Below, piece by piece: positions 8,956 through 50,417 of a stretch of 64,000 nt of DNA. The DNA is from an uncultured Chloroflexia bacterium (GTDB lineage: Bacteria > Chloroflexota > Limnocylindria > Limnocylindrales > CSP1-4): positions 14-64,013 of the forward strand of contig CAVOVX010000007.1 in the NCBI GenBank assembly GCA_963699965.1. Direction: 5' to 3'. The notes under the pieces were generated by a model. The model saw only the letters and a program-made list of their open reading frames with translations, did no database searches and was not told the origin of the DNA. The number at the start of each line of letters is the position of its first letter. Position 1 is the stretch's first letter. Both the position numbers and the translations under genes were made by a program.

Positions 8956-9001
8956 CAAGTTCCCCCACCCTCGCCTCGGCGTGGTCCTTTGTCGTCCGTT
9001 G

Positions 9002-9015
9002 CGCAACCGATTTCT
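9002..9015. promoter_or_regulatory. Weaker copy (11/14, inverted orientation) of the LacI-type operator: CGCAACCGATTTCT, preceded by TTGCGCAA
   Basis: The reverse complement reads AGAAATCGGTTGCG and shares the AATCGGTTGC core with sites B and C. It lies 59 nt upstream of ATG 9074. Confidence 0.35.
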
Positions 9016-9073
9016 GGCGCACGTCCGGTTCGACTACGATCGGTCGCGACGAGCGCTTGACCGCGGAGGACAG

Positions 9074-10089
9074 ATGGCATCCCGGATCGGCCTGGCGATC
9101 ATTGGCGCCGGGCGGATGGGTCGCAACCACGCTCGGTTGATCGCGGCCGGCGTGCCCGAGCTGTCGATCGTCGCGATCGGCGACGTCGACGGCGCCGCAG
9201 CCGACCGTCTGGCCGACGAGATCGGGAGCGCGACGGGCTTCGCCGACCCGCTCGCCGCGATCGCGGCGCCGGGCGTCGACGCCGTGCTCATCGCAGTCTC
9301 TTCCGACCAGCATCGGCACGTCGTGGAGGCCGCCGCGGCCGCGGGCCGGGACATCCTGTGCGAGAAGCCGCTGGCGCTGACCTCGCGGGCACGGAGCGCG
9401 ATCGCGGCCGCGGAGCGGGCCGGGGTCCGCCTCCAGGTGGGGCTCATGCGGCGCTGGGACCCGGACTACGTCCGGGCGCGTGCCCGGATCGCGGCCGGCG
9501 ACCTCGGACGGCTGTTGCTCTTCACGCCGCTGCAGTACGACAGGGACCCTCCACCGCTCGCGATCCTCGACCCGGCGGTAGCGGCGGGATCATGCTCGAC
9601 ATGGGCATCCACGAGTTCGACCTAGCTCGGTTGCTGATGGGCGCCGAGGTCGTCGAGGTCCAGGCAACCGGCTCGATCGTCCAGGCCCCGAGACCGCCGC
9701 GTTCGGGGACGTCGACACCGCCGTGGTGAGCCTCCGGTTCGCCTCGGGCGCGATCGGGACCGTCGAGATGAGCCGCGGCGACGACGTACGGCGAGGACGT
9801 CCGGACGGAGGTCCACGGCACCGACGGGAGCGCGTTCATCGGCGGCCTGCCGATCGCTGGCGGGTCGGCGATCGGCCGGGAGGGCGGTATCAGCTGGGAT
9901 GCGACGTCGCCGTCGATGCCGCGCTTCGCCCCGGCTTACATCGACCAGGCACGCGCCTTCGGCCGGTCGATCCAGAACGATGAGCCGGTAAGCCCCTCCG
10001 GCGCCGATGGCCGCGCAGCCTTCGTCATCGCGATGGCTGCCTCGCGCGCCCTGCAGGAGGCGGGGACCGTGGCCGTTGACGTGGTGTAG
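9074..10089 (+). pseudogene. Gfo/Idh/MocA family oxidoreductase (inositol dehydrogenase-like), at least 4 frame breaks
   Basis: GGAGGA RBS then ATG 9074. MASRIGLAIIGAGRMGRNHARLIAAG...DAVLIAVSSDQHRHVVEAAAAAGRDILCEKPLALT / GGIMLDMGIHEFDLARLLMG / VVSLRFASGAIGTVEMSR / YGEDVRTEVHGTDGSAFIGG...ADGRAAFVIAMAASRALQEAGTVAVDVV, stop TAG at 10087. Confidence 0.7.
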
Positions 10090-10100
10090 CATCTCGTAGT

Positions 10101-10114
10101 TGCAAACGGTTGCA
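10101..10114. promoter_or_regulatory. LacI-type operator site A: TGCAAACGGTTGCA
   Basis: Fits the TGnAAnCGnTTnCA pattern exactly. It lies 25 nt upstream of the P450 GTG (10140), with GGAGGG at 10128-10133. Confidence 0.65.
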
Positions 10115-10139
10115 CGATCCACGACCGGAGGGCCACAGT

Positions 10140-11333
10140 GTGGCAACTCTCGATTCGCTGATGTCACCGGAGGCGCCGGTCCGGTGGGACCCGCTCCGGG
10201 TGGTCGACGATCCGTATCCGACCTATCGCCGGCTTCGCAACGAAGCACCCCTTTATCGGGACGAGGAGCGAGCGATCTGGGCTCTATCCCGCTTCGACGA
10301 CGTCCAGGCCGCGGCGCGGGACTGGAAGACGTTCTCGAGCAGCGAAGGCAACGATCACGACGACGGACACCAGCTGTTCGAGCCGGCGGGTGACGTCGCC
10401 GGGATCGATCCGCCCGACCACACGCGCTTACGCAAGGCCCTTCACAGTGCCTTCAGCCCGTCGGAGATCAGAGCCAGGTTCGAGCCGTCGGCTCGCCTCA
10501 AGGCGAGGAGCCTGATCGACGCGTTCGCCGATCTCGGCCGGGCCGATCTGGCGCGTGACCTGGCCAGGCCGCTCCCCGGCGCGATGGTCTGCACGTGGCT
10601 CGGCTTCCCGGAGGACGACCATCCGCAGCTGCTGGACTGGTTCGGGCACTTGCTCGACCGCGTGCCCGGCGAGCATGGGCTGCCGGCGTCCGCACTCGAA
10701 GCCCGAGACCGGATGCGCGCCTACGTCGAGGCAGCGGCGGCTGAGCGTCGGGTCGCGCCCCGCGCCGATCTGTTGACGGTGCTCGTCCAGGCCCAAGCCG
10801 ACGGCGCCATCAGCGGGGATGAAGTGCTCGGCTGCTCGCTGCTCCTCTTCCTGGCTGGCATCACGACCACATCTGGGCTGATCTCGAATTCGCTCCTTCA
10901 CCTCGACCGATTCCCCGACCAGCGCGAGCTCATGCGTCTCGAACCGGAGCGCATTCCGGCCGCGATCGAGGAGCTCCTTCGCTTCGAGGCGCCAATCCAG
11001 ACCCTGATCCGGACGACCTCGAAGGAGGTCGAGATGCATGGGACGATCATTCCCAGGGGTGCCCACGTGAGCCTCATCTGGGCGTCAGCGAACCGCGACG
11101 AGCGACGCTGGACGGATCCGGATCGGCTCGACATCGGGCGTGCGCCGGAGCGGCACGTCGCCTTCGGCGAAGGGATCCACCACTGCATCGGAGCGCCGCT
11201 CGCGCGCCTCGAGGCCCGGATCGCCTTCGAGGAGCTGTTCGCGCGGATCCCGACGTATGCCGTCACTGGACCGATCAGACGGGTCAGCACACCGACCGAT
11301 CGCGCCCTGGAGAGCCTGCCCGTGGAGTTCTGA
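10140..11333 (+). CDS. Cytochrome P450 (intact)
   Basis: Heme-binding loop FGEGIHHCIGAPLARLE, ExxR in EELLRFEAP, I-helix-like LLLFLAGITTTSG, N-terminal YPTYRRLRNEAPLYRDEE. The start is taken as the GTG 6 nt after GGAGGG. Confidence 0.9.
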   Translation: MATLDSLMSPEAPVRWDPLRVVDDPYPTYRRLRNEAPLYRDEERAIWALSRFDDVQAAARDWKTFSSSEGNDHDDGHQLFEPAGDVAGIDPPDHTRLRKALHSAFSPSEIRARFEPSARLKARSLIDAFADLGRADLARDLARPLPGAMVCTWLGFPEDDHPQLLDWFGHLLDRVPGEHGLPASALEARDRMRAYVEAAAAERRVAPRADLLTVLVQAQADGAISGDEVLGCSLLLFLAGITTTSGLISNSLLHLDRFPDQRELMRLEPERIPAAIEELLRFEAPIQTLIRTTSKEVEMHGTIIPRGAHVSLIWASANRDERRWTDPDRLDIGRAPERHVAFGEGIHHCIGAPLARLEARIAFEELFARIPTYAVTGPIRRVSTPTDRALESLPVEF

Positions 11334-11349
11334 GCGGACCGCCGCTCGC

Positions 11350-12216
11350 TCAGGCGGTCGTCGACGCGCCTTCCAGGAGCCCTCGGATCTGCTCGAACAT
11401 GAAGCGCGACGACTCCACGGCGCGCTCTTCCCAGGCGAAGACACAGCTCGTCAGGATCCCATCGAAGCCGACTCGCCGGAGCGCGTCGAAGCAGGCCACG
11501 AAGTCCACCTCGCCCTGGCCGATGTCGAGGTGCTGGTGGACGCGGGCCGGCGATCCGGGCGGGTTCACGATGTAGCGGTTGCCCGACGACGCCCGGTGGT
11601 TGAGCACGTCGGCGACGTGGACCTGGGTCAGGACGGGTGCGGCATAGTCGATCATCGCCCCGATGTCGTCGCCCAGGTAATAGGTGTGCGGCGCACAGAA
11701 CACGTAGCCGACGATCGGTGAGTCGATCCCTCGGACCAGGTCGACCGCCTCGGTGTTGCGCTCGATGAAGTCGTCCGGATGGGCCTCCAGGTTCAGCCGG
11801 ATCCCTTCCCGCTCGAAGATCGGCAGCAGCTCGTCCATCGAGCGCCAGAACTGCGCCTCGCTCCGGGCGGCCTGCTCCGGGCGACCGTTGAACTCGGAGT
11901 TCATGACCCCGCAGCCGACGTCGGCGGCGAGCTGGATCGCCCGCTTCCAGTAGCCGACGGCGGCCAGCCGCTCGTCTTCGTCCGGGCTCGACCAGCGGTA
12001 GAGGGGCAGGATCGACGCCAGCTCCATCCCCGTGTCGCGGAGCGCCGCCCGGAACTCCGCGACCTTGGCCCGATCCGCGCGCGGGTGCGTGAAGAACGGG
12101 ATGAAGTCAGGTCGTGGCGAGAGCTCGATCGAGTCGTAGCCGATGTCGGCTGCGATCCGACAGACCTCGGCGAACGGACGGTCGCGGAGCATGTACGGAT
12201 CGAGGGCGATCTTCAC
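11350..12216 (-). CDS. Sugar phosphate isomerase/epimerase (xylose isomerase-like TIM barrel), intact
   Basis: 288-aa ORF with IGYDSIELSP, MNSEFNGRP, RLNLEAHPDDF and HVHVADV..HLDIGQGEVDF. The start lies 2 nt downstream of the stop of the upstream large gene. Confidence 0.85.
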   Translation of the reverse strand: MKIALDPYMLRDRPFAEVCRIAADIGYDSIELSPRPDFIPFFTHPRADRAKVAEFRAALRDTGMELASILPLYRWSSPDEDERLAAVGYWKRAIQLAADVGCGVMNSEFNGRPEQAARSEAQFWRSMDELLPIFEREGIRLNLEAHPDDFIERNTEAVDLVRGIDSPIVGYVFCAPHTYYLGDDIGAMIDYAAPVLTQVHVADVLNHRASSGNRYIVNPPGSPARVHQHLDIGQGEVDFVACFDALRRVGFDGILTSCVFAWEERAVESSRFMFEQIRGLLEGASTTA

Positions 12217-12217
12217 G

Positions 12218-14823
12218 TCACGAGCTCTCCCGTTTGGCCGTACCGATCCGCCTGCGGAGGTCGGCTCCGCTCGCCGCGATCCGGTCCACCATCCGGGTCC
12301 GCTGAGCCGGGTCCGCGATGGTGGCCATGGAGTCCAGCCATCGTACGGTGCCGTCGATGACCGCGAGGATCGCCTCGGCGTCCGACGTGACGCACAGCGG
12401 CCGGTCGACGACCTCCACGTAGACCGGCGACGTATGGGCGGCCATGCTCGTGTTGTAGGCCGACCGGATCTCGTAGTCGCTGCGCGACCTGGCCGCGATC
12501 CAGGACCCCGCCGCGATGGAGATCTCGGCGGCGAGCTGGAGGTCGTCCGTCGCCCGGTCGACCGTTCGCTCGGCCACGACGCGACCGTTCACGACGAGCT
12601 CGACGGACCGGATGATCGATTGGGCCGCTCGAGCCCGGGCGTGCACGGTGAGCCGGCCGCCGCCCGCGGGCAGGACCAGGACGTCGCCGGGTTCGTGCCC
12701 ATCGACCGACAGCGCCAGCATCGGACCGGAGGTCGCAAACGTCCGTCCGGCACGAACCGCCGCGGACCAGGCGGCGAACGTCGCCGCCGCGTCGGGATCG
12801 AGCCGGGCGTAGGTCCGGATGGCGCCGACCGGCATCTCGGCCGACATCTTGTCGGTCCCACCCAGGACCGGCACCCGGTAGCCGCAATTGAGGAAGCGGT
12901 ACCACTCGCTGATCGACGGGTTGTCGAGGCCAGGAGCGAACGTCTGCATCTCGACGGCGTCGATCCGGCCGGCCACGATCTCGGCAGCGATCTCGGCGAA
13001 CGGCAACGGGAAGTGCGCCCCGACGACGAGGCCGCCCTCGGCGTGGCAGCGGTCCGCCCAGTCGCCGAGCAGCTCGGTGACGGCTCCCCCGATCCGGCCC
13101 TCGGGCCCGCCGCCCGAGGCGAGCGGAACGGTGGGCCGGCGCGCTCCGAGCAGGGCGAGATGGCCGAGCACGTTCTGGCGGTTCTCGGTCCCGACGATGA
13201 CGATGTGACGACCGTCGGGATCGGCCTGTGAGCCCCAGGCGAGGTCGGTGACGTTGGTGAACTCGTCGCCCAGCTGGGTCGCCAGCAGGTGGACGAACAC
13301 GACGTCCTCGGCGGCCGCCTGGAGGAGCGCCGTCGAGGGGGCCAGGAAGTGGACATGGGAGTCCGCGGAGCGCCAGCCGTCCGGCCGCAGATCGATCGCT
13401 CGCTCGAGCGCGACCGTGACGTCACGAGTCCCCGGCTCGACGACCAGCGTGCGACGCACAGGGCGGTGATCGAACCCCTTCACGACCTCGATCGCCACCT
13501 CGCCCAGCGGCAGGTCGATCGAGAACGCGCCGGGCACGTACGCGTAGGTGTCACCTCCGAGGATCAACCCGGCGCCAGAGTCCTCCAGGAGCCCCGGATT
13601 GATCTCCTCGCGGTGACCGAGCGGCGGCAGGTAGCGCCCGTCCGCGGCCACGAACCGCACCCGGGACGGCGTTGGCGCGTCGTCGGCCAGGATCCGGACG
13701 TCGACCCGGACCTCGGGCGTCGGCAGCGGACGGATCGTGATCCCGCCGTCCGGGCTCGTCGTCCGGGAGCCGAGCCCGGCGACCGCGACCTCCCAGTCGC
13801 CGAACGTCAGCCGCGCGTCGGGCGCTGCAGCGACGTCGAGGACTGTTCGCGCTGATCCGCCAGCTCGATTGGAGCCGTCGCGGGTGAGTGGCTCCGCGGA
13901 TCCCCAGCCGACCGGTCCACGGTCCGGGCCGTCGTCCGACCCGCGCGGCAGCGGGAGCGGTCGGGCCCCGATGGCGACCCCCAGGTCCACCTCGGGCAGG
14001 CCGTCTGCCGGGCCTTCGACCAGGAGCTGCCGGCGTGGCTCCAGGACGAGCGGGTCCGCGGTGCCCGCGAAGAGGGTCAGCGCCGCAAGGACGACCGCCG
14101 TGCCCGGACGGCCTCCGCCGAGCGGCACGAGACGCAGCTCGACCGGATCGCCATCGCCCAGCGGGATGGCGTGGAGCCAGTAGGTCGCGTCGTCGTCCGC
14201 GGTCGGGACGAAGTCGGCGATGCCCACCTGGGCAGCGCCCCACGAGCCGGGCAGCATCGCGAGCAGCCCGGCCTGGCCGGCGGCGACGCGGCGGCCCGGT
14301 TCCTGCCGTGGATGTGGGCCACGCCAGTCGAGCGTCTCGTCCGCCCGGTGACCGATCGCCGCGAACGGGATGAACCCCCAGCCGATGATCCCGTCTGCGA
14401 TCTCGAATTGACGGCGGATCTCGACGGCTCGGGTCGTGCCATCGGCGAACGTGATCGCGTACCGGGCGAGCCGCTCGCCGGTCGGCAGGACCCAGCCCAC
14501 GGGTGTTTCGGACGCTCGCTTCCCCGCGGCATCGCGCCAGCTGTCCGCGAAGTGGGCCACCACGAGGTGGCTGGCTCGGCCCTGACCCCGGAGGTCGATC
14601 GTCAGCTCGTCATCGAGGAGCAGCCAGCGCCGTCCCGCAGCCCGTCGTCCGAGCTCGAACGGGAGGCCCCGGAACACGACGGGGCCGTCGGGCAGCCGCG
14701 CCAGGGCGGACCGGTACGCGGATCGAGCCGTTCGCCCAATTCGGCATCGGACGCGTTCCACGCCGCCGACAGGTCCACCGGACGCGCCAGAGGCGTCGCG
14801 ATGCGGCCTCGCCCGATGGCCAT
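12218..14823 (-). CDS. Large (about 868 aa) uncharacterised protein, paralog 1. N-terminal half unknown; C-terminal metal-dependent hydrolase-like domain. One frame break near 14720.
   Basis: ATG 14823 (MAIGRGRIATPLARPVDLSAAWNASDAEL), then the 898-aa ORF frame. Motifs ADSHVHF, GTENRQNVLGHLALLG, VVGAHFPLP and GGTDKMS give an HxH...H...H...D pattern. About 50-70% identical to the gene at 27013-29588. Confidence 0.7.
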
Positions 14824-14879
14824 GGCTGCGACCCTCCCGACCGATATTGACGCGAGGAGAGTTGCGATGATACCTTCGT

Positions 14880-14893
14880 TGCAATCGGTTGCG
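14880..14893. promoter_or_regulatory. LacI-type operator site B: TGCAATCGGTTGCG, in the 83-bp divergent region
   Basis: 13 nt upstream of the iolD ATG (14907, RBS AAGGAGGG) and 56 nt upstream of the divergent large gene (14823). Overlaps the palindromic octamer TTGCGCAA (14889-14896). Confidence 0.65.
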
Positions 14894-14906
14894 CAAGGAG
14901 GGATCG

Positions 14907-16797
14907 ATGGACACCGTCCGGCTGACCGTGGGTCAGGCCATCGTCCGCTTCATGGCCAACCAGTACGCCGAACGAGACGGCCGCGAACAGCGCTTCATCG
15001 CCGGGGTCTGGGGCATCTTCGGGCACGGCAACGTCGCCGGCTTCGGCCAGGCCCTCGAGGAGCTCGGGGACGCCGAGGACATGCCCTACTACCGGCCCCA
15101 GAACGAGCAGGCCCAGGTCCATCTGGCGGCCGCGTTCGCGCGGCACAACAACCGCCTCCGGACATACGCCTGCACCTCGTCCGTCGGCCCGGGCGCGATG
15201 AACATGATCACCGGGGCTGCCGGCGGCGACCGTCAACCGGATCCCGGTGCTGCTCCTGCCGAGCGACTACTTCGCCAACCGGACGCCGGATCCCGTCCTC
15301 CAGCAGATCGAGCATCCGACCGAGCGCGACTTCGAGCGCCAACGACGCGTTCCGCCCGGTCTCCCGGTTCTTCGATCGGATCTCGCGTCCCGAGCAGCTG
15401 ATCGCCTCGCTGCCGGCGGCGTTTCGCGTGCTCACCGATCCGGCCGACACCGGGGCGGTCACGATCTCGCTGCCCGAGGACGTCCAGTCCGAGGCGTTCG
15501 ACTGGCCCGAGCGGTTCTTCGAGCGGCGGGTCTGGCGAGTTCGCCGACCGTTGCCTGAAGCGGCCGACGTGGCCGACGCGGTTCGCCTGATCCGGGCGTC
15601 GACGGCACCGGTGATCGTCGTCGGCGGGGGCGTGATCTACTCCGAGGCGACCGAGGCGCTGTCGGCGTTGGCGACGCAGTTCGGGATCCCGGTGGTCGAG
15701 ACGCAGGCTGGCAAGGGCGCCCTGCCCTGGAACCATCCAATGAATGCCGGCCCGGCGGGGACCAACGGCGGTCTGGCCGCCAACCGGCTCGCCCGCGACG
15801 CGGACCTGGTCATCTGCGTCGGGACGCGGATGGGCGACTTCGTGACCGCCTCACGCACGACGTTCCAGCACCCCGAGGCGAGGTTCATCGGCATCAACAT
15901 CGCGCCGATGGACGCCCACAAGCTGCGCGCGGTCCCGGTCGTGGCCGATGCCCGCGAGGCCCTGCGCGCGCTCGAGCGTGAGCTGGCGGCCGCCGGCTAC
16001 GCGGGGACCGCCGAACCGTATCGGCGGCGCGTCGCGGGGCTCAAGATGGAGTGGGACGACATCGTCACCAGCCTGCGAACGCGTGGATGGCGCTCCGGGC
16101 GATCTCGGCCAGGCCGAGGTCATCGGGATCGTGAACGACGTCGTGGGCGGTCACGCGACCGTGATCTGCGCCGCGGGCAGCCTGCCTGGTGACCTGCTCC
16201 GGCTGTGGCGACCCGAGGACCCCAAGGCCTACCACGTCGAATACGGCTTCTCGTGCATGGGCTACGAGATCGTGGCCGGGCTGGGCGTCCGGCTGGCCGA
16301 CCCGGATCGCGAGGTCGTCGTGATGGTCGGCGATGGCTCGTACCTGATGTTGAACTCCGAGATCGTCACCGCGGTCGCCGAGGGCCTCAAGCTCACGATC
16401 GTGGTCCTCGACAACCACGGGTTCCAGTGCATCCTCGCGCTCCAGCGGCTGGTCGGCGTGCCGGACTTCGGCAACGAGCTCCGCTTCCGCGACCGGTCGC
16501 GCAACCGGCTGACGGGCCCATACGTCCCGATCGACTTTCGGAAGCACGCCGAGGCGATGGGGGCCCTGGCGCCTCCAGGCGAACACGGCCGACGAGCTGC
16601 GCGCGGCGCTCGCCACGGCGCGCGCCGCCGATCGGATCGCGGTGATCGCGGTGCCCACCGAGCCGGAGAAGCGCGTCCCCGGCTTCGAATCGTGGTGGGA
16701 CGTCCCGGTGGCCGGTGCGAGCGAACAGGCCTCCGTCCGCGGCGCCCGGACGGCCTATGACGAGAAACGCCGCGAGCAGCGGACGGACATCCAGTAG
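14907..16797 (+). pseudogene. iolD: 3D-(3,5/4)-trihydroxycyclohexane-1,2-dione acylhydrolase IolD (ThDP enzyme), at least 4 frame breaks
   Basis: MDTVRLTVGQAIVRFMANQY...GIFGHGNVAGFGQALEE / [28 protein letters not shown] / [19 protein letters not shown]...VIVVGGGVIYS...ETQAGKGALPWNHP / GYEIVAGLGV..VVVMVGDGSYLMLNSEIVTA...LDNHGF / ...EKRVPGFESWWDVPVA, stop TAG at 16795. Confidence 0.85.
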
Positions 16798-16810
16798 ACA
16801 GGAGAAGCCC

Positions 16811-18049
16811 ATGCCTGGTCCCGGGATCGAGCTCATCGGTGCCGAAGAGACGGCCGAGGTCATGGAGGTGCTGCAGAGTGGCTACCTGAGTCGCTACGGC
16901 CCCTCGGACGATCCACGGTTCGGCGCCAAGGTGCATCACATCGAGCAGACGATCGCCGGCCTGACCGGCGTCCGCTATGGGCTCGGTCTCCACGGTGGTG
17001 GGTCGGCGGCGCTCTGGATCACGCTGCTCAGCCTCGGGGTGGGTGCCGGCGACGAGGTGATCGTGCCCGGCTTCACCTATGTCGCCTCGATCTCGGCGAT
17101 CGTCTACACCGGCGCGACGCCGATCCTGGCGGAGATCGACCAGACCTTTGATCTCGACCCGGCCGACGTCGAAGCCAAGATCACCCCTCGGACAGCAGCC
17201 ATCCTCGTCGTCCACATGCTCGGCGCCCCGGCCCGGATCAACGAGTTGAAGGCGATCGCCGACCGGCACGGGATCCCTCTCGTCGAGGACTGCGCCCAGG
17301 CGTTCGGGGCGACCTACGAAGGGCGGGGCGTCGGCGGGTTCGGGACGGCGGGGACGTTCAGCTTCAACGAGTTCAAGACGATCACGTGCGGCGACGGCGG
17401 GATGATCGTCACCGATGACGAGACGCTGTACGAGCGATGCTTCGCGATGCACGATCAGGGTCATGCTCCTGACCGGCTCGAGTCGAAGTACGCTCCGAGG
17501 CCATTCCTGGGCATGAACTTCCGGATGACGGAGCTGTCCGGCGCCGTCCTTCTCGGCCAGGTTCGGAAGCTGGACCTGATCACCTCGCACCTGCGGGCCA
17601 ACAAGGCGATCATCAAGGACATGCTCGAGGAGGTCCCGACGATCGGTTTCCGGACCCTGACCGATCCGGAAGGCGACCTCGCGACACACCTCGTGGTGGT
17701 GCTCCCGTCTGCGGAGATCGCCGCGAATGTCGCCGAGGAGGTGGGCTCCAAGCCCCTGTCCGAGTCGGGCTGGCATACCTACAGCCGGATGAACCACCTG
17801 CTCGAGAAGCGGACGATCACCGGCAAGGGCTGCCCATTCGACTGCGCCGACCCGAGCCATCCGCACGGCGACTATCGGGCAGGCATGCTGCCCCAGACCG
17901 ACGCTCTCCTGGAGCGCTCGCTGAGCATCGGGATCGGGGTGAGCGATCCCAACCTCGCGCCGTTCGGCCTCCGGATGCGCGACGGGGAAGCCGAGGCCAG
18001 GCAGGTCGGGGCCACCTTCCGCGATGCCGTGATCAAGCACCGGGCGTGA
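16811..18049 (+). CDS. DegT/DnrJ/EryC1/StrS family PLP aminotransferase (intact); candidate inosose/inosamine aminotransferase
   Basis: 412-aa ORF with a GGAGAAG RBS. GGGSAALWITLLSLGVGAGDEVIVPGFTYVAS, LVEDCAQAFGA, and FSFNEFKTITCGDGGMIV (lysine motif). Lies between iolD and iolC. Confidence 0.85.
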   Translation: MPGPGIELIGAEETAEVMEVLQSGYLSRYGPSDDPRFGAKVHHIEQTIAGLTGVRYGLGLHGGGSAALWITLLSLGVGAGDEVIVPGFTYVASISAIVYTGATPILAEIDQTFDLDPADVEAKITPRTAAILVVHMLGAPARINELKAIADRHGIPLVEDCAQAFGATYEGRGVGGFGTAGTFSFNEFKTITCGDGGMIVTDDETLYERCFAMHDQGHAPDRLESKYAPRPFLGMNFRMTELSGAVLLGQVRKLDLITSHLRANKAIIKDMLEEVPTIGFRTLTDPEGDLATHLVVVLPSAEIAANVAEEVGSKPLSESGWHTYSRMNHLLEKRTITGKGCPFDCADPSHPHGDYRAGMLPQTDALLERSLSIGIGVSDPNLAPFGLRMRDGEAEARQVGATFRDAVIKHRA

Positions 18050-18065
18050 CCGTCGGCGGCGCGCC

Positions 18066-19029
18066 ATGATCCAGGCTGTCGTGGTCGGCCGGGTCGGCGT
18101 CGACTTCACGCCAACGACGCCTCGGACGACCCTGGCCGCGGCCGAATCGTTCAGCCGGGCGGTCGGCGGCTTTGCCGGGAACATCGCGACCGGTCTGGCC
18201 CGACTCGGCATCCGCGCGGCGGTCGTGTCGGCCGTTGGCGACGATGGTCACGGCGATCACGTCCGAGGATTCCTCGAAGGCGAGGGCGTCGACGTCGGCC
18301 ACATCGTCACCCGGGCCGGTTCCAGGACCCAGGTGGCCTTCTTCGAGACCTGGCCGCCGGACCGCTTCCCGGTGACCTTCTACCGGCCGTCGCCGGCCCC
18401 GGAGACGCGGCTCACGGTCGCCGATCTGCCGGCGGCCATGCTCGAGGTCGCGCCGCTCGTGGTCCTTTCAGGAGCCCTGTTCGCCGAACAGCCGGCCAGG
18501 TCGATGGCGCTTGCGCTCCTCGACGTCCGACGAGCGTCGCGGGACCGGCGACGCGTCTCGACGACGATCCTCGATCTCGACTGGCGACCGACCCTGTGGC
18601 CCGACCCGAGTGAGGCGCCCACGTTGATGGAACGCGCGGCACGGCTAAGCGACATCGTCATCGGCAGCAGCGAGGAGTTCGCGGCCGCCGGCCTGCGACC
18701 CGAGACCGGCTCGGGCGGCGGACCTGACCTGGTCGTCCTCAAGCACGGATCCGATGGCGTTTCGCTGGTGACCGATGGCGAGCGGCGCTCGCTGCCCGGA
18801 AATCGACGTGGAGGTCGTGTGCGCCACCGGTGCTGGCGATGCACTCGCGGCCGCCTTCGCCGCCGGCCTCCTGAACGGCCTCGACCCGCTCGTCGCCGTC
18901 GAGCGTGGCAACGCCGCGGGAGCCATCGTCGCGACGAGGCTGATGTGCAGCACCGCGATGCCGACGCCCGCCGAGATCGACCGACTGCTCGCCGACCAGG
19001 TGGTCGAGTCGCACGGAGCCAGGCCGTGA
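18066..19029 (+). CDS. iolC: 5-dehydro-2-deoxygluconokinase IolC (PfkB family), one frame break near 18795
   Basis: MIQAVVVGRVGVDFTP..FSRAVGGFAGNIATGLARLG...DLDWRPTLW..., then in another frame EIDVEVVCATGAGDALAAAFAAGLL..GNAAGAIVATRLMCSTAMPT. The TGA at 19027 overlaps the iolB GTG. Confidence 0.8.
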
Positions 19030-19952
19030 CGGCCGCCGACGAACGAGCCGCTCCGGTCATCCATCCGGCCAAGCTGCCGCAGCGCCAGCCACCCGAGTCG
19101 CTTCACGTCCGCCCGGATCCCGACGGGGTCGTCGCGACTGACCCCGTCCGCGCCGGGTGGCGCTACCTGTCCTTCCGGGCGTTCGCGCTCGACGCGGATG
19201 AGATCGTGCTGCTCGACCGCCCGGAGCAGGAGGCGGCGATTGTCACGATCTCGGGCGGCGGCGTCGAGGTCGCACTCGACGACGGTGCCCGCCTCCAGCT
19301 GACCGGGCGACCCACGGTGTTCGAGGGCATGCCGTGGACGGCCTACGTCCCCGCCGGCACGACCGCCCGGATCGTCGGCCGACCGCTCCCGGGGCGACGC
19401 GCGGTCGTCGCGGTCGCCCAGGCGCCGCTCAGCGGCCGGCCGATCGGGAAGCTGCGCCCCGAGATCGTCCGACCCGAAGACGTGGAGATCGAGATCCGGG
19501 GCGCCGGCAACGCCACCCGCCAGGTCAACAACATCATGATGCCCGACTTCGCGGCCGATCGGCTCCTCATCTGCGAGGTGTTCACGCCGTCGGGCAACTG
19601 GTCCGGTTGGCCGCCTCACAAGCACGACATCGACGATCCGCCGCGGGAGGCCGTGCTCGAGGAGACCTACTTCTACCAGCTGAGCCGTCCCGAGGGCTGG
19701 GCAATCCAGCGGGTCTACCACCGCGATGGGTCGGGCGATCGGATGATCGTCGTCCGCCATGGCGACCTGGTGATCGTCGACCAGGGGTACCACCCATTCG
19801 CTGCCACCCAGGGCTACGACGCCTACTACCTCAACGCCCTGGCGGGTGATCGCCGGACCATGGCCAACACGGACGACCCCGACCTCGCCTGGGTCCGTTC
19901 GCTGTGGCCGGCGATGGCGCCGGATCCGCGGCTTCCGCTGGTCCACCCGTGA
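19026..19952 (+). CDS. iolB: 5-deoxy-glucuronate isomerase IolB (intact)
   Basis: GWRYLSFRAF, EIRGAGNATRQVNNI, LLICEVFTPSGNWSGWPPHKHD, EETYFYQL, VVRHGDLVIVDQGYHPFAATQGYDAYYLNALAG. Confidence 0.85.
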   Translation: MTAADERAAPVIHPAKLPQRQPPESLHVRPDPDGVVATDPVRAGWRYLSFRAFALDADEIVLLDRPEQEAAIVTISGGGVEVALDDGARLQLTGRPTVFEGMPWTAYVPAGTTARIVGRPLPGRRAVVAVAQAPLSGRPIGKLRPEIVRPEDVEIEIRGAGNATRQVNNIMMPDFAADRLLICEVFTPSGNWSGWPPHKHDIDDPPREAVLEETYFYQLSRPEGWAIQRVYHRDGSGDRMIVVRHGDLVIVDQGYHPFAATQGYDAYYLNALAGDRRTMANTDDPDLAWVRSLWPAMAPDPRLPLVHP

Positions 19953-20947
19953 CGCCGGCGTCCGGCGCGGCTGGCGGTCGATCGACTGCGACCGCTGCGC
20001 CGAGCAGCGTCGCCGCAGCAGCGGTTGGCCGGCAGCGCCGGCTGCTCCGGCTCGGCGGCCAGCGCGGCGTCATCGCCGGGATCGCGATCGATCACCGCGA
20101 CAGCCTGCGAGTGATGCTCGACCGACGGGGCTCGACCGGCCTCGGGACGGCCGAGCTCCGCTCGTTGAAGCTCGCCCTGACCCGAGCCCTGGCCCCGGCC
20201 GCGACCGCCGTCATGCTCGACGAAGAGCTCGGCGGGCTGGCGCTCGAGGCGGGCGCCGTGCCGGCCACGGTCGCGTTGATCATGCCGCTCGAAGCCCAGG
20301 GCTACGAGACGACCGGCGACGGGCCGGCGACCACGCTGCTGGACGACTTCTCGCCGGCCGCCGCGCTTCGCTACGGCGCGGACGCGTGCAAGTTGCTCCT
20401 CCCGTACCGGATCGACGATGCCGGCGCGGCCGCCGGGCAGGAGGCGCTGGTCAGCTCGACGGCCGCTGCCTGTCACGAGCACGGCCTGCCACTCGTCATC
20501 GAACCTGTCGCCTACCGCCGGACCGGTGAGACCGAGGCAGCCTACCGCCGCTCGTATCCGCAGCTCGTGGTCGGTGCCGTGGAGCGACTCCAGCCGCTGG
20601 GCGCCGATCTGCTCAAGCTGCCGTTTCCCGTGCTGGACCTCGAGACGGCCCCCGAGTCGGTCGCCGTCGATGCCTGCCACGCGCTCGGTGCTGCCTGCCG
20701 GGACACGCCCTGGGCCCTCCTCGGGGCCGGCGCTGACGCCGACACGTTCGTCGAGCAGATACGATTCGCCGGCAGCGCCGGGGCGTCCGGCTTCCTGGCT
20801 GGCCGCGGCATCTGGGGCGCGGCGCTGAACGCCGATCCGGCAGAGGCCGAGCGGATCGCGATCGAGACCTGCCGGCCCGCCCTCGAACGATGCCGCGCGG
20901 TCGCCGAACGGTTCGCGAGGCCCCTGGGCGGGGCCCCGTTCGGCTGA
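19949..20947 (+). CDS. Class I aldolase (LacD/YihT-like); candidate functional replacement for the DKGP aldolase IolJ
   Basis: The GTG overlaps the iolB stop (GTGA). IAGIAIDHRDSLRVML, GADACKLLLPYRIDD, LPLVIEPVAY, GADLLKLPFP, GASGFLAGRGIWG. The ORF track starts it at 19904. Confidence 0.65.
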   Translation: MTPASGAAGGRSTATAAPSSVAAAAVGRQRRLLRLGGQRGVIAGIAIDHRDSLRVMLDRRGSTGLGTAELRSLKLALTRALAPAATAVMLDEELGGLALEAGAVPATVALIMPLEAQGYETTGDGPATTLLDDFSPAAALRYGADACKLLLPYRIDDAGAAAGQEALVSSTAAACHEHGLPLVIEPVAYRRTGETEAAYRRSYPQLVVGAVERLQPLGADLLKLPFPVLDLETAPESVAVDACHALGAACRDTPWALLGAGADADTFVEQIRFAGSAGASGFLAGRGIWGAALNADPAEAERIAIETCRPALERCRAVAERFARPLGGAPFG

Positions 20948-20973
20948 CAACGGAACTCCGTCAGGAGCGGTCG

Positions 20974-21816
20974 ATGCAGCTCGTCTACAACTCCAACTCG
21001 ACGATGCACCTCCCCGTGCTCATGCAGATCCGGGTCGCCCGGGAGACCGGCTGGGACGGGGTCTTCCTCCGAGCGGAGCACATCCGTCGGTACCTCGCCC
21101 AGGGCTACGAGGCGGCGAGCCTGCGCACGGCCCTGGCCGGCCTGGGCCCGCTGAATCTCGGGGCACTGCCCGACGTCGAACGCTGGCGACCTGCCGAGCA
21201 TGCGGCCATGCTCCGCGAGGCGGCCGGCCTCACCGAGCTGGCCGCGGAGATCGGCGCGTCGTACGTCCAGCTGCTGACCGGACCCGTGGCGCCGGGCGGG
21301 GCGTACAGCGGACCCTCGAGCCTGTCCGACGCCGAGCTCATCAAGGTGACCGCCCGGGCGGTTCGCTCGGTGGCCGACCTGGGCGGCCCGGCCGGCCTGC
21401 GCTACTACCTCGAGCCGGTTGCCTGGACGCCGCTGTCGACCATCGCCCAGGCGGTCCGGGTGATCGACGCCGCTGAGCGCGACAACGTCGGGCTGGTGCT
21501 GGACTTCTGGCATCTCTGGCAGCGAGGCACCACCCCGGACGGCATCGCCCGTCTCGATCCCCGGATCATCTTTGGCGTCGACCTCGGGGACTCCCTGGGA
21601 CCGCCGGGCGCCGGCACGGCCGACCAGCGGAGCCGGTGCGTCTGGCCCGGCGATGGTGACATCCCGCTCCGCGAGTGGGTCGCCGCGGTCCGCTCGACCG
21701 GCTTCGACGGCTGGTGGGACAACGAGCTCTACAGCCCGCTCCACTGGGAGTCTGCTGACCCGTTTGCCGTCGGAGCGGGCTTGCTCGAGGTGCTCCGGAC
21801 GTTGCTGCGGGACTGA
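20974..21816 (+). CDS. Sugar phosphate isomerase/epimerase (xylose isomerase-like TIM barrel), intact
   Basis: MQLVYNSNSTM..., YVQLLTGP, RYYLEPVAWTP, GLVLDFWHLW, PGDGDIPLREWVAAVRSTGFDGWWDNELY. Confidence 0.8.
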   Translation: MQLVYNSNSTMHLPVLMQIRVARETGWDGVFLRAEHIRRYLAQGYEAASLRTALAGLGPLNLGALPDVERWRPAEHAAMLREAAGLTELAAEIGASYVQLLTGPVAPGGAYSGPSSLSDAELIKVTARAVRSVADLGGPAGLRYYLEPVAWTPLSTIAQAVRVIDAAERDNVGLVLDFWHLWQRGTTPDGIARLDPRIIFGVDLGDSLGPPGAGTADQRSRCVWPGDGDIPLREWVAAVRSTGFDGWWDNELYSPLHWESADPFAVGAGLLEVLRTLLRD

Positions 21817-21863
21817 CCCGCGGTTCACAATGTTGACGTTGCGCAGGGCCGATGCTACGGTTG

Positions 21864-21877
21864 CGCAATCGGTTGCA
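21864..21877. promoter_or_regulatory. LacI-type operator site C: CGCAATCGGTTGCA, upstream of the lacI-family gene
   Basis: Preceded by TTGCGCAA (21861-21868) and followed by AAGGGG, then GTG 21887 / ATG 21899 of a short ORF. Confidence 0.6.
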
Positions 21878-22070
21878 GCACAAGGGGTGCGGTCCACGAT
21901 GCGTGCTTCTCCGCGCGATTTCGCTGCGGTCGAGGTCGCGTGGTCGGACGACCCGCGCTGCCATCGCGGCGGGTCGCCGCACCTGGCCCGCCAGCGGTCC
22001 GAGCTGGGCACCGGCGAAGATCGGCCCGACCGCGCCGTGCGCGTCGCGGTCTAGGCGGAGCCGCCGGCCC

Positions 22071-23153
22071 GTGCCATCCAGCGACGGCCAGCGCCGGACC
22101 GACGGTCAACACCGGACGGGCGGCCCGCGTCGTCGGATCCTCCTCAAGGATGTCGCCCAGCGAGCGAACGTCTCGGGCTCGACCGCGTCGCGGGCCCTGG
22201 CCGACGACAAGCGGATCAGCGCTGCCACCCGGCAGCTGGTCAAGGCCGCCGCCGCCGAGCTGCACTACGTGCCGGATGCGACGGCCCGCAGCCTTCGGGT
22301 CCGGCGGACTCGGACGCTGGGTCTCCTCCTGCCCGACCTGCGCGACCCGGTCCACGGCCAGGTCGCGTCGGCGTTCGAGCAGGAGGCGCGCCAGCAGGGG
22401 TACGTCGTGATGGTCGTGGCTGGCGAACGCGACCTCGCGCGCGAGCGGCTCGCCTTGAGGGCCTTTGCCGAGCACGGGACCGATGGGGTTGCGGTCGTGT
22501 CCGGCGTGTTGCCGCCGAACGAGCTGCGCGAGCGGGTCGATCCCGACCGGCTCGTCCTCGTCTGGCCCGACCATCGGAGCCTGCCTCGACACGCTGGCCC
22601 TAACGTCCCGGGCGTCATCCAGACCGATGACGCGAGCGGCGTGCGGGCTGCGGTTGACCACCTGGTCGACAGCGGCTGCCGGCGGGTCGCCTATGCCGAG
22701 AGCGGGCGGCGCGCCTCGAACACGATCCGAGCCGAGACCGTCGCCGCGACCCTCCGCGATCGAGGCATCCGCGCTCCGCTGCGCAGGTTCCCCGCCCCGG
22801 TCGATTCGTGGCGGGCACCCGCGGCGCTCGCTGCGGAGATCGCTGCGGACCCCCCCGAGGCCCTCGTCTGCTACGACGACCAGCTCGCGCTCGGGCTCAT
22901 GGACGCGCTCCGTGGCCTGGGCGTCCGGATCCCCGACGACATGGGCATCGTCGGGTTCGACGGGATCCCCTTTGCCGCCATCTCGAACCCCCGGCTGACG
23001 ACCGTGGTGGTTCCGTCGGCGGAGATGGGCCGGGCTGCGGCGTCGTCGGCGATCCAGGCCGTACACGACGGCCGGCTGCCGGACGGCGTGCTGTTGCCGG
23101 TCGAGATGGTCGTCCGCGAGAGTACCCGGGTCGTGTCCGTGAGCCGTCCATGA
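22071..23153 (+). CDS. LacI family transcriptional regulator (intact core; start uncertain)
   Basis: HTH ILLKDVAQRANVSGSTASRALADDKRISAATRQLVKAAAAELHYVPDATARSLR, then a periplasmic-binding-fold effector domain. The start is taken as the in-frame GTG at 22071 with GGAG upstream. The ORF track opens at 21852. Confidence 0.85.
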   Translation: MPSSDGQRRTDGQHRTGGPRRRILLKDVAQRANVSGSTASRALADDKRISAATRQLVKAAAAELHYVPDATARSLRVRRTRTLGLLLPDLRDPVHGQVASAFEQEARQQGYVVMVVAGERDLARERLALRAFAEHGTDGVAVVSGVLPPNELRERVDPDRLVLVWPDHRSLPRHAGPNVPGVIQTDDASGVRAAVDHLVDSGCRRVAYAESGRRASNTIRAETVAATLRDRGIRAPLRRFPAPVDSWRAPAALAAEIAADPPEALVCYDDQLALGLMDALRGLGVRIPDDMGIVGFDGIPFAAISNPRLTTVVVPSAEMGRAAASSAIQAVHDGRLPDGVLLPVEMVVRESTRVVSVSRP

Positions 23154-23208: not shown

Positions 23209-24106
23209 TTGCCGCTGACACCGGATGGGGGCGTCGACCCCGGGGTCGACCTGGCCGACCTCGCCCGGCGCGGCCGGCTGCTCGTGATCGACTCGGTCGC
23301 GCACAGCGGTGCCGGGCACATCGGCGGCCCGCTATCCGCGATGGACCTCCTCGTCGCGCTCTACTTCAGGGTCCTGCGCATTCGTCCGGACGCACCCGAC
23401 TGGCCTGACCGCGATCGGTTCATCCTGTCGAAGGGCCACTCCGCGATCGGACTCTACGTGGTCATGGCCCTGCGCGGCTACTTCCCGGTCGAGGAGCTCG
23501 CGACCTTCGATGCGGGTGACAGCCGGCTGCAGGGGCACCCCGACATGACGCGGCTACCTGGGCTCGAGGCATCGACGGGTTCGCTCGGCCAGGGCCTCGC
23601 CGTCGGGCTCGGGATCGCCCTCGGAGCCCGCCTGCGCGGGCTCGGGTTCCACACGTTCGTGATGCTCGGCGACGGCGAGACCCAGGAAGGGATGGTCTGG
23701 GAGAGCGTGATGGTCGCGGCCAAGTACGGGCTCGGCAATCTCACCGCGATCGTCGACTGCAACGGCCTCCAGCAGTACGGCTGGCCGCCGGTGCCGGGCG
23801 AGGATGCGCGCGGCGACCGACGCGACCCGCTCGCCGGGACCCGCCTCCGCGACGCCCTCGAAGCCTTCGGCTGGCGGGTCCTGGAGATCGACGGGCACGA
23901 CCATGAGGCGATCGTGGCCGCCTGCGAGGACGCTCGCGGCGCTGGCCGGGCCGGCCGGCCGACGGCGATCCTGGCGGCAACCGTCAAGGGGCGGGGATTG
24001 TCGTTCACGGAGGGTCGCACCGAGTGGCACGCGCGCGTGGCGACGGCCGACGACGTTGCGGCGGCCCGAGTCGGAGCTCGGTCTCGCCGAGGACGCCGGG
24101 TCGTGA
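23209..24106 (+). CDS. Transketolase, N-terminal (ThDP pyrophosphate-binding) section. As written it is fused to the C-terminal section; a 1-nt shift near 24065 restores a stop at 24104.
   Basis: HSGAGHIGGPLSAMDLLVALYF, ILSKGHSAIGLYV, RLQGHPD, STGSLGQGLAVGLG, MLGDGETQEGMVWES, DCNGLQQ. The alternative frame ends ...ELGLAEDAGS-TGA. Confidence 0.75.
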
Positions 24107-25071
24107 CCCGCCCGATGCGTGACGCGTGGGCGGAGACCCTGCGCGAGCTGGCCGTCGACAACCCCGACCTGCTCGTCCTCGACGGCGACCTCGCCTCGTC
24201 GACCCGAGCCGATCGGTTCGCCGCCGCCCATCCGGACCGGTTCCTGCAGATGGGCATCGCCGAGCAGAACCTGGTCGGGGTGGCGGCCGGCCTGGCGACC
24301 CTGGGTTACGTTCCGTGGCTGTCGTCGTTCGCCGTGTTCTTCACCCATCGCGCGATCGACCCGATCAGGATGCTCGTCGCCCAGACCCATGCCAACGTCA
24401 AGATCGGTGCGGCGTACACGGGCCTCCTGACCGGCTTCACCGGGAAGACACACCAGGACGTCGAGGACCTCGCGATCATGCGGGCGATGCCGGGCATGAC
24501 GGTCATCGCCCCGTGCGATGCAAGCGAGTGCGTGGCGGCCGTGAGATGGGCGACCGAGACCCAGGGACCGGTCTATCTCCGCCTGGCGCGCGATGCGGGC
24601 CCGGACGTCTTCGACGACGCCTACCGGTTCGAGCCGAGCCGGGTCATCCGATTGCGCACCGGGTCCGACGTCCTGTTGGTCTCGACCGGTGTCCAGACGA
24701 CGCGGACCCTCGAGGCGGCCGCGATCCTCGCGTCGAGGGGGATCTCGGCCGGCGTCCTCCACGTCCCCTGCCTGAAACCGGTCGATGCGGACGCGATCGC
24801 CGAGGCGGGACGCGGCGTCCCGCTCGTCGTCACGACCGAGGAGCACACGGTCCTGGGCGGTCTCGGCGGGCTGGTCGCCGAGATCCTCGGCGAGCGCGCG
24901 CCGCGCCGGCTCGCGCGGATCGGGATCGCCGACACCTGGGGCGAATCGGCCCCAAACGCCTTCCTGCTCGACCGGCACGGGCTGTCGGCGGAGCGCGTCG
25001 CGGAGCGCGTGGCGCTCGAGCTGTCGCAGGTCGAGCTCGTCGAGGGTGCCGCAAGCGAGTCCGGACGATAG
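24103..25071 (+). CDS. Transketolase, C-terminal (pyrimidine-binding plus C-terminal domain) section
   Basis: GTG 24103 (overlapping the TGA) or ATG 24115. MRDAWAETLRELA, RFLQMGIAEQNLVGVAAGLA, GKTHQDVEDLAIMRAMPGMTVIAPCD, VTTEEHTVLGGLGG. Confidence 0.75.
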   Translation: MTRPMRDAWAETLRELAVDNPDLLVLDGDLASSTRADRFAAAHPDRFLQMGIAEQNLVGVAAGLATLGYVPWLSSFAVFFTHRAIDPIRMLVAQTHANVKIGAAYTGLLTGFTGKTHQDVEDLAIMRAMPGMTVIAPCDASECVAAVRWATETQGPVYLRLARDAGPDVFDDAYRFEPSRVIRLRTGSDVLLVSTGVQTTRTLEAAAILASRGISAGVLHVPCLKPVDADAIAEAGRGVPLVVTTEEHTVLGGLGGLVAEILGERAPRRLARIGIADTWGESAPNAFLLDRHGLSAERVAERVALELSQVELVEGAASESGR

Positions 25072-25087
25072 CGGTCGAGGAGATCAG

Positions 25088-26132: not shown

Positions 26133-26967
26133 GCCCCGCCGTGACCCGCCACCTGCGCCCCAGGGGCAGTCTGGGGACGCATCCTCGAGATCACGCCGGA
26201 GAGCATCGGCTGGCGATACCTGTCGTTCCGGGTGCGTCGCCCTGGGACCCGGCGAGACGGTCGATGCCGACACGGGTGAGACCGAGGTCGCGCTGGTCCC
26301 GCTCGGCGGTTCCGGCTCGTTCACGTTCGGGGGCGCGACGTACCCGATCTCCCGCCGGGACGTGTTCAGCGAGAAGCCGCACGTCCTCTACCTGCCGCCG
26401 CGATCGGCGTTTGCGATCCGCGCCGAGGAGGCGTTCGAGGTCGCGATCGGGGCGGCTCCGGCCGTCGGTCGTTATCCCGCCCGCCTGTACCTGCCGGGCG
26501 AGCTGCCGAGCTTCGTCCGCGGCGGCGCCAACGTGAGCCCGCGGGGTGACCGCGACCCTCGATCCCGGGTTCCCGTCAGAGCGGCTCATCGCCTACGAGA
26601 TCCTCACCCCGAGCGGCAACTGGTCGAGCTTTCCGCCACATCGCCACGACGGTCGGTTCGGGACGACCTACCACGAGGAGACCTACTACTACCGGCTCTC
26701 ACCACGCGATGGCTTCGCGATCCAGCGCCTGTACACCCGCGACACCGAGCTCGACGTCTCGATTGCGGCGGCCGACGGCGACCTGGTGCTCGTCCACGAG
26801 GGCTATCCATACGGTCGCGACGGCGCCGGGGACAAACGCCTACTACCTCAACTTCCTCGCCGGTGACTCCAAGCCCGTGGTCCAGCTCAACGACCCGGCC
26901 TACGACTGGATCGTCGAGGACTGGGCAGGGCGGCCGATCGGCGATTCCGCTCGAACCGGCGACCTGA
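26129..26967 (+). pseudogene. Second IolB-like 5-deoxy-glucuronate isomerase paralog, at least 5 frame breaks
   Basis: The ATG overlaps the upstream stop (ATGA). ILEITPESIGWRYLSFRV / GETEVALVPLGGSGSFTFGG..DVFSEKPHVLYLPP / ERLIAYEILTPSGNWSSFPPHRHD..EETYYYRL..VLVHEGYP / GTNAYYLNFLAGD...DWAGRP / AIPLEPAT stop at 26965. Confidence 0.7.
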
Positions 26968-30928: not shown

Positions 30929-30964
30929 CGCAGGTCCGACACGCGGACGATGGAAGGGACTGGA

Positions 30965-32160: not shown

Positions 32161-32186
32161 CCGATCGGCCGGGATCGGACTCAGGC

Positions 32187-50408: not shown

Positions 50409-50417
50409 CGGCGACGG

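Follow-up and report, generated by a model that had tools for sequence, protein, structure and literature searches.

A predicted CehA/McbA-family metallohydrolase linked to an inositol-catabolic operon in an uncultured Chloroflexota bacterium

Introduction

To our knowledge, no natural function has been assigned to the CehA/McbA family of metallohydrolases, and the only members that have been studied are recently recruited pesticide hydrolases. In this study, we analysed a gene of this predicted family in a window of 64,000 nucleotides (nt), by which we mean the whole stretch of DNA under analysis, from an uncultured Chloroflexia bacterium of the order Limnocylindrales (contig CAVOVX010000007.1 of assembly GCA_963699965.1). 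The gene, referred to here as the target or paralog 1, occupies positions 12218 to 14823 of the minus strand (stop codon 12218-12220, ATG 14821-14823), encodes a protein of 868 amino acids (aa) and diverges from iolD, the first gene of an inositol-catabolic operon. The Limnocylindrales-type Chloroflexota are an abundant, uncultured soil and freshwater group.

The closest described enzymes are the carbaryl hydrolases McbA of Pseudomonas sp. XWY-1/C5pp and CehA of Rhizobium sp. AC100. They have in common with the target a homologous beta-sandwich, a PHP-like barrel and a C-terminal beta-sandwich, and the target conserves their HxH motif, two Glu, two His (His467 and His504 of McbA), an Asp and the His of an HTSP motif. 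The similarity does not extend to the ends of the protein: the first ~345 aa of the target are unrelated to the McbA N terminus, and a helical hairpin at its C terminus lies outside the alignment. The genetic settings also differ, in that the McbA gene is carried by a xenobiotic-catabolic plasmid beside IS6100 and Tn3, whereas the target is a chromosomal gene of an inositol cluster with predicted LacI-type control. The substrate of the target is certainly not a synthetic pesticide.

With respect to fold, the catalytic barrel resembles the PHP (polymerase and histidinol phosphatase) domain of endonuclease Q (EndoQ; PDB 5zb8 and 7k30), which likewise has an N-terminal HxH and, after it, Glu, His and Asp ligands at intervals. 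The majority of the PHP enzymes that have been characterised are phosphoesterases whose multi-metal sites are built of His, Asp and Glu, and their metal ligands follow a pattern of an N-terminal HxH and a C-terminal DxH motif. Unlike the PHP phosphoesterases, the target has no sequence match to the Pfam PHP family or to a PDB chain, lacks the DxH motif and has carbamate esterases as its characterised relatives.

A third point of comparison is offered by the rhizopine genes mocCABRDEF of Sinorhizobium meliloti, which serve in the use of scyllo-inosamine as well as 3-O-methyl-scyllo-inosamine; the moc gene functions used in this comparison are general background. Both systems include a GFO/IDH/MocA dehydrogenase, an AP_endonuc_2 (IolE/MocC-like) protein and an oxygenase (a P450 in the window), and both depend on the iol pathway. 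An aminotransferase is encoded in the window as well; inosamine is formed from inosose by enzymes of this class (PMC6668481). The moc system differs in having no known CehA/McbA-like hydrolase, in being regulated by MocR (of the GntR/aminotransferase type) rather than by a LacI-family protein, and in belonging to Alphaproteobacteria rather than Chloroflexota. The moc binding protein is of the sugar type and is not PotD-like.

Results

Catalytic domain of the hydrolase

Profile, alignment and fold searches indicate that the target protein is a CehA/McbA-family, PHP-like metallohydrolase and not an amidohydrolase. NF038032 (CehA_McbA_metalo), the sole NCBIfam domain in the target, matched residues 483-804 over the full profile (positions 1-315) with 148.3 bits against a cut-off of 80 (E 3.2e-43), and a full match in the same position was found in 7 distant full-length members. 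The catalytic family is thus already known, since RefSeq gives proteins of this kind the name "CehA/McbA family metallohydrolase." Among plasmid sequences searched with tblastn was McbA of Pseudomonas sp. XWY-1, an experimentally studied carbaryl hydrolase, and BLASTP aligned residues 345-805 of P0001, the closest homolog of the target, with McbA residues 230-695 (27% identity over 460 aa, E 4e-25). An earlier note on this DNA, made from the sequence alone, had left the choice between an amidohydrolase-superfamily and a PHP/CehA-McbA-like enzyme undecided; NF038032, McbA and EndoQ bear out the latter, and we rejected the former because no amidohydrolase was found either in Pfam or among the best 50 Foldseek matches in the PDB. 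That note had also allowed for confident homology of the whole protein to a characterised family unrelated to cyclitols, and what emerged is only a partial and distant homology to the carbaryl hydrolases.

The PHP domain of EndoQ was the only confident domain-level fold match of the catalytic part (Foldseek against the PDB, probability 1.0), and it is weak in extent, with a template modelling score (TM-score) of 0.37-0.39 on the target, a root-mean-square deviation of ~5 Å and ~245 aligned columns. Matches of the full model to GH2 glucuronidases were discounted because their TM-score is ~0.1 and they reflect only a similar domain order. No Pfam family, PHP (PF02811) included, matched the whole protein at E<=1, and sequence searches of the PDB with the single sequence, with a 56-member profile and with the catalytic domain alone returned only chance-level NSF matches.

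Invariance of residues was judged in two sets, one of 56 orthologs and one of 23 members whose identity reaches as low as 33%. D488, H490, H492, E506, D527, E547, R549, H555, H604, E611, D622, E625, D658, R670 and H797 are invariant, and K659 is nearly so; the metal ligands that the earlier note had predicted are therefore kept throughout both sets. A review citing mutagenesis reports that His467, His477 and His504 in the predicted PHP-like domain of McbA are crucial for hydrolysis (PMC8292978). McbA His467 aligns with H555 of the target (in LGH) and His504 with H604 (in AHFP), both of which are invariant in the family alignments. Also common to McbA are the DxHxH, AE(D/G), (T/Q)E, (T/S)D and HTSP positions, which include E506, E547, D658 and H797. 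Of the two halves of the PHP ligand pattern, the HxH is present and invariant (H490 and H492), and the invariant D658 precedes K and M instead of xH. Another invariant His, H797, belongs to the domain after the barrel, a beta-sandwich, and may take the place of the absent DxH motif.

Integrity of the gene

The long minus-strand open reading frame (ORF) that ends at 12218 has a G+C content at third codon positions (GC3) of 0.87 and a codon bias in keeping with this genome of 70% G+C. The protein has 411 homologs at E<=0.001, the best 120 of which all have E=0, and this excludes a chance ORF. A ribosome-binding site, GGGAGGG at 14832-14838, precedes the ATG at 14823, and this ATG is off-frame with respect to the long ORF. 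P0001, encoded on contig L001, is intact, 868 aa long and 93% identical to the target, and begins MAIGQGRIATPLARPVDLSAAWNASDAELGKRLDPAYRPALARLPDG. In the window copy, residues 1-34 lie in one frame and the sequence then continues as AYRSALARLPDG in another. DNA alignment with L001 located the frameshift at 14717-14720 (minus strand), where a CCC run (codon 35, Pro) is one C short, and it is because of this 1-nt deletion that the gene is read in two frames. Adding back the missing C near 14719 yields a translation of 868 aa; the earlier description of a protein of about 868 aa, almost intact, thus turned out to be exact, and its coordinates were correct. The translation contains all of the motifs that had been quoted, namely RLPDGPVVFRGLPFELG, RRQFEIADGIIGWG, LDWRGPH, YWLHAI, RVRFVAADGRYLPP, AYVPGAFSIDLPLGEVAIEVVKGFDHRP, ADSHVHF, GHLALLG, GAHFPLP and GGTDKMS. 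An alternative ORF of 898 aa from a GTG at 14914, which would overlap the start of iolD, was dismissed as an artefact.

The deletion is not the only one of its kind in the region. When positions 9001-21918 of the window were aligned with the 93%-identical L001, 17 insertions or deletions (indels) that are not a multiple of three were counted in ~13 kb. Compared with L001, the window iolD has four 1-nt insertions and iolC has one (at ~18800), with protein identity still at 92-97%, and in L001 itself iolG is split. The window has the look of a noisy assembly, probably made from long reads, so that any frameshift in it has to be treated with caution. The frameshift in the target is probably a technical or assembly error, and we attribute it to assembly noise rather than to selective decay because iolD and iolC are broken too and yet remain 92-97% identical to their L001 counterparts.

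An N-terminal module without recognised relatives

The protein consists of a family-specific N-terminal module (aa 1-345, positions 13790-14823), a linker with a beta-sandwich (aa 346-480, 13385-13789, including RVRFVAADGRYLPP and VVKGFDHRP), the PHP-like catalytic barrel (aa 481-700, 12725-13384), which carries most of the invariant residues, the C-terminal beta-sandwich of the CehA/McbA domain (aa 701-806, 12407-12724), with the invariant His797 in AAHTSP, and a C-terminal helical hairpin (aa 807-868, 12221-12406; helices 813-832 and 839-865), all on the minus strand. An AlphaFold2 model of P0001 (predicted local distance difference test score [pLDDT] 78.6, predicted template modelling score 0.77) comprises a beta-rich N-terminal module (aa 13-137 and 216-289) with an unmodelled segment (aa 140-211), two more beta units (aa 326-380 and 387-473), an alpha/beta barrel (aa 484-700), a beta-sandwich (aa 702-805) and two long helices (aa 813-865). 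The beta-sandwich-like stretch that the earlier note had placed ahead of the catalytic core is confidently predicted as such at aa 387-473. What the same note took for a 150-aa tail does end the protein; it is really a beta-sandwich (aa ~701-806) that lies within the NF038032 domain, followed by a hairpin of ~60 aa that extends beyond the McbA-alignable part. As read from the sequence, the N terminus has no hydrophobic signal-like stretch, and the hydrolase is presumably cytoplasmic.

The first 480 aa had been described as unrecognised. This is true of aa 1-345; aa 345-480 are common to McbA, and the truly unrecognised part is therefore the N-terminal module. The module is beta-rich and jelly-roll-like and has no match in Pfam (in 15 of 15 members), among PDB sequences or among PDB folds. 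Its profile is unrelated to the McbA N terminus (hhalign, probability 0.6%), and a separate model of the module (pLDDT 70) retrieved no fold from the PDB at E<=0.001 with Foldseek; the best match, AziU2-U3 (8gs1, E 0.016), and the generic jelly-rolls that came after it were too weak to assign. In a HMMER scan of 1.84 billion cluster representatives, only 190 contained the module (E<=0.001). Every full-length member among them is 825-900 aa long and carries the module at its N terminus. This is a small family with a fixed architecture of ~850 aa.

The best-conserved part of the module is a segment at aa 138-211 (14192-14413, minus strand) with the pattern RRRFEIxDGxxGWG...F.A..HR...DWRGPH, whose invariant residues include R138, G145, W149, G150, H159 and W167. 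Despite this conservation, it is the only part that neither AlphaFold2 model could place (pLDDT ~30). Our guesses for its role would be an interface between subunits of an oligomer or a lid over the active site.

Linkage to the inositol operon

The target and iolD (14907-16794, plus strand) diverge from an intergenic region of 85 bp. This region holds a predicted LacI-type operator at 14880-14897, between the target ATG at 14823 and the iolD ATG at 14907, which reads TGCAATCGGTTGCGCAAG on the plus strand. The corresponding 18-bp block on the target strand, CTTGCGCAACCGATTGCA, does not vary across 17 species with protein identities of only 60-93%, and we take it to fit the LacI-family half-palindrome GCAAnCGnTTGC. 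Operator-like sites with 2-3 mismatches also stand at 10101 (before the P450 gene), 21864 (before lacI) and 29655 (between paralog 2 and an ABC importer gene). Across the window there are 12 operator-like matches against 6 expected by chance, a count that is not striking in itself, and it is their positions that matter. The earlier claim that the target diverges from iolD across an operator thus held up, and its description as operator-controlled appears well supported by the conserved block and by the similar sites before three other units.

Synteny was surveyed in 76 loci from GTDB species representatives and in 4 metagenome contigs. Among the 31 loci with at least 59% identity to the target, iolD is adjacent and divergent in 25 of the 28 with enough upstream sequence, a gene for an AP_endonuc_2 xylose-isomerase-like TIM-barrel protein lies directly downstream in 25 of 27, and a gene for a DegT/DnrJ/EryC1-family aminotransferase (DegT) occurs within 10 kb in 27. 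At 44-59% identity, where the paralog types fall, DegT lies within 10 kb in 16 of 26 loci. Nearly all of the surveyed loci have a LacI-family gene inside the cluster. We regard the identity of the target and its membership in the iol regulon as highly likely.

In the window, the TIM-barrel gene (11350-12216, minus strand, 288 aa) has a GTG start 1 nt past the TGA of the target and a GGGAGAG ribosome-binding site inside the 3' end of the target. This spacing makes it probable that the two genes are co-transcribed and translationally coupled. Co-transcription had been proposed before and is plausible, as no terminator-like site was found between the genes and their order is kept in 25 of 27 loci. 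In one metagenome-assembled genome (MAG) in GTDB (L028, CAVPRZ010000009.1, 18940-21900), no paralog-1 hydrolase appears to separate the TIM-barrel gene from iolD, from which it diverges directly, and a hydrolase of the paralog-2 type is found on the far side of lacI; the hydrolase and the TIM-barrel gene are thus strongly but not obligatorily paired.

On the plus strand, iolD heads an operon in which it is followed by DegT (16811-18049), iolC and then iolB (18066-19949), a DeoC/LacD-type aldolase gene (20114-20944) and an iolE-like gene (20974-21813). The iolD of L001 scored 897 bits with TIGR04377 against a cut-off of 715. A position of DegT between iolD and iolC is unusual for iol operons. 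The LacI-family regulator gene (~22083-23126) comes next, and beyond it are a transketolase gene (23209-25071; N-terminal, pyrimidine-binding and C-terminal domains) and a GFO oxidoreductase gene within the ORF at 24785-26536, all on the plus strand. The transketolase is a single ORF of 620 aa in the window and two genes (311 and 318 aa) in L001, which could be another indel effect or a genuine difference. On the other side of the target, an iolG-like gene (~8.9-10.09 kb, plus strand) is followed directly by the P450 gene (10200-11330, plus strand), which is convergent with the hydrolase/TIM-barrel pair and has its own LacI-type operator-like site, TGCAAACGGTTGCA, at 10101-10114. Our guess is that the P450 demethylates O-methyl-inositols.

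Paralog 2 and distant members

A second hydrolase gene, paralog 2, was located by tblastn at ~27034-29500 on the minus strand. Its product has 52-65% identity to the target and 72-79% to proteins of L028, L029 and L065, and its window copy has at least 4 frame changes. It diverges from genes for a PotA/PotD/PotB-like polyamine-type ABC importer (29843-33106, plus strand) across the operator-like site TACAAACGGTTGCA (29655-29668). A third Limnocylindrales subfamily (L042) likewise diverges from a PotA/PotB/PotD-like polyamine-type importer, and its hydrolase gene is followed by genes for an SDR, an IolD paralog, a GFO oxidoreductase and DegT. An 840-aa ORF at 49599-52121 (plus strand) was considered as a second paralog and rejected; it does not resemble the target in sequence and is an antisense ORF rich in Arg, Gly and Asp. 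It is apparently spurious, and the high-GC3 ORFs in that part of the window lie on the minus strand (49707-50417 and 50418-52148).

Large plasmids of root-nodule rhizobia also encode full-length proteins with this architecture (32-34% identity). The homolog on plasmid pMspAR10a of Mesorhizobium sp. AR10 (L005, 11887-14574) is flanked by a PotD-like ABC system and a gamma-glutamylputrescine-synthetase-like gene, and the locus also encodes a D-amino-acid-dehydrogenase-like flavoenzyme and a serine hydrolase. The homolog on plasmid p4_1 of Bradyrhizobium sp. 4 (L006, 11656-14292) stands beside genes for an MFS transporter and a LacI regulator. A member in a Dehalococcoidia MAG is also beside an MFS transporter gene, and one in an Acidobacteriota MAG is accompanied by genes for a LacI regulator, two AP_endonuc_2 proteins, a RhaT-like transporter and an aldo-keto reductase. 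Of 24 distant loci, 7 have a GFO oxidoreductase alone near the hydrolase. The common denominator of these loci would be a cytoplasmic hydrolase that acts on a small compound, taken up by the cell, that resembles a sugar, a cyclitol or an amine.

Discussion

In the model that we favour, release of a LacI-family repressor from the common operator would lead to expression of the hydrolase/TIM-barrel pair together with the iolD operon; the repressor would switch on both units at once because a single LacI-type operator lies in their common promoter region. A metal-activated water in the PHP-like site would then attack an amine-bearing cyclitol conjugate and split it at an ester, carbamate or amide bond; the conjugate would be an imported compound such as an N-substituted inosamine or an aminosugar-inositol. 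The freed (amino)cyclitol would be adjusted by the TIM-barrel enzyme and turned by the DegT aminotransferase into a keto-inositol, which IolE, IolD, IolB and IolC would degrade together with the aldolase. We see about an even chance that the target is a cytoplasmic, metal-dependent CehA/McbA hydrolase, co-regulated with iol, that unmasks such an imported conjugate. Our assignment of the bond and of the substrate class is tentative, with a likelihood somewhat below even. The earlier note had suggested that the protein releases or modifies a cyclitol from a conjugate, and all of the context evidence is consistent with this suggestion.

One clue to an amine is the presence of DegT inside the iol operon. 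The best solved relative of this aminotransferase is KdnA (5k8b, E 5e-78), which acts on a free sugar and not on a nucleotide sugar. The DegT family also includes the rhizobial aminotransferase MosB. This enzyme converts scyllo-inosose to scyllo-inosamine and back (PMC6668481). When plasmids were searched with DegT by tblastn, only generic DegT matches came up (31-42% identity), and these did not narrow the substrate. Together, DegT in the iol operon, the polyamine-type importers and the Mesorhizobium locus point to an amine-bearing compound.

Several observations weigh against this model. Synthetic aryl N-methylcarbamates are the substrates of the only relatives that have been characterised, to which identity is just 27%, and the third His of McbA reported to be essential, His477, is not conserved in the target, where it aligns with Thr565. 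Since this position varies across the family, His477 is probably specific to McbA rather than family-defining. The literature on CehA/McbA together with inositol, and on inosamine catabolism together with iolD, yielded no characterised member of this architecture. Below 44% identity, DegT occurs near none of 23 loci, and iolD is likewise near none of the 23 distant loci; the iol/DegT linkage is confined to Limnocylindrales-type Chloroflexota, and for this reason the substrate may differ across the family. As for regulation, it is sequence conservation that suggests the pairing of operator and repressor, and a simple sigma-70 consensus scan of positions 11200-15000 found no promoter, so that intergenic promoter hexamers read by eye are mere suggestions. 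The window copy of the hydrolase gene also contains a frameshift. Finally, the bond cleaved could be a phosphoester, because PHP-fold enzymes are mostly phosphoesterases.

This last point can be developed into a separate explanation, in which the protein is a PHP-type phosphoesterase that takes phosphate off, or opens a phosphodiester in, an inositol phosphate, glycerophosphoinositol or cyclic inositol phosphate and provides free inositol for the iol pathway. The EndoQ match at the level of fold, the chemistry of most characterised PHP enzymes and the adjoining iolD are all in line with such an activity, as are the invariant R549 and R670 and the nearly invariant K659, which flank the ligands, and the weak match of the partner TIM-barrel protein to the AP_endonuc_2-type phosphodiesterase CbiR. 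We nevertheless consider it unlikely, as the protein has no Pfam PHP match even at E<=1, has K and M after D658 where the C-terminal DxH would be expected, and has as its only characterised homologs enzymes that cleave carbamate esters (PMC8292978). Moreover, the associated importers are of the polyamine type and not of the phosphate-ester type, no phosphate-metabolism genes were seen nearby, and the conserved DegT would be left without a role.

The variety of the distant loci raises the question of whether any link to cyclitols is intrinsic. A broad hydrolase of sugar or amine derivatives, acting on some other imported substrate and set among iol genes only in one lineage, would account for the differing surroundings of members at 33-40% identity (only an MFS transporter; a RhaT-like transporter alongside two AP_endonuc_2 proteins and an aldo-keto reductase; only a GFO oxidoreductase; a PotD-like ABC system together with a glutamine-synthetase-like protein) and for the 23 distant loci without DegT or iolD. 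This is decidedly unlikely in our judgement, since the clade of the window keeps a divergent iolD in 25 of 28 species-level loci together with a common, invariant operator, sites of the same type occur at both paralogs, and the third subfamily is again found with an IolD paralog, a GFO oxidoreductase and DegT. It is also very unlikely that the window copy is a decaying pseudogene without function in this organism. The deletion at codon 35 does end translation from the ATG after ~73 codons, and paralog 2 is disrupted by its own frame changes; yet iolD (4 indels) and iolC (1 indel), whose products stay 92-97% identical to those of L001, are broken too, L001 likewise has a split iolG, and the target, apart from its one indel, is 93% identical to an intact 868-aa homolog and keeps all of its catalytic residues.

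Compared with the described systems, the new elements appear to be a fixed architecture with an unmatched module of 345 aa, a predicted cytoplasmic and chromosomal setting, and integration into an inositol/aminotransferase regulon in uncultured Chloroflexota. The ~345-aa N-terminal module, with neither a Pfam entry nor a match to a solved structure, is a candidate new domain family. A bolder extension of the amine-bearing cyclitol model, and a rather unlikely one, is that this architecture is a natural, ancestral-type representative of the family behind the carbaryl and carbofuran hydrolases, that it carries out the first step in the catabolism of amine-bearing cyclitol conjugates in soil Chloroflexota, and that the N-terminal module, including residues 138-211, serves in substrate recognition or active-site closure. 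The substrates in that case may be rhizopine-type N-substituted inosamines or aminosugar-inositols such as the GlcN-inositol derived from mycothiol.

The gene set suggests that Limnocylindrales-type Chloroflexota may break down (amino)cyclitol conjugates by a route not yet described. A conserved chromosomal subfamily that belongs to an inositol/aminotransferase regulon is a place to seek both the natural function of the CehA/McbA family and the origin of the carbamate-pesticide hydrolases, and the target, as a well-framed hypothesis, is a good candidate for that natural function.

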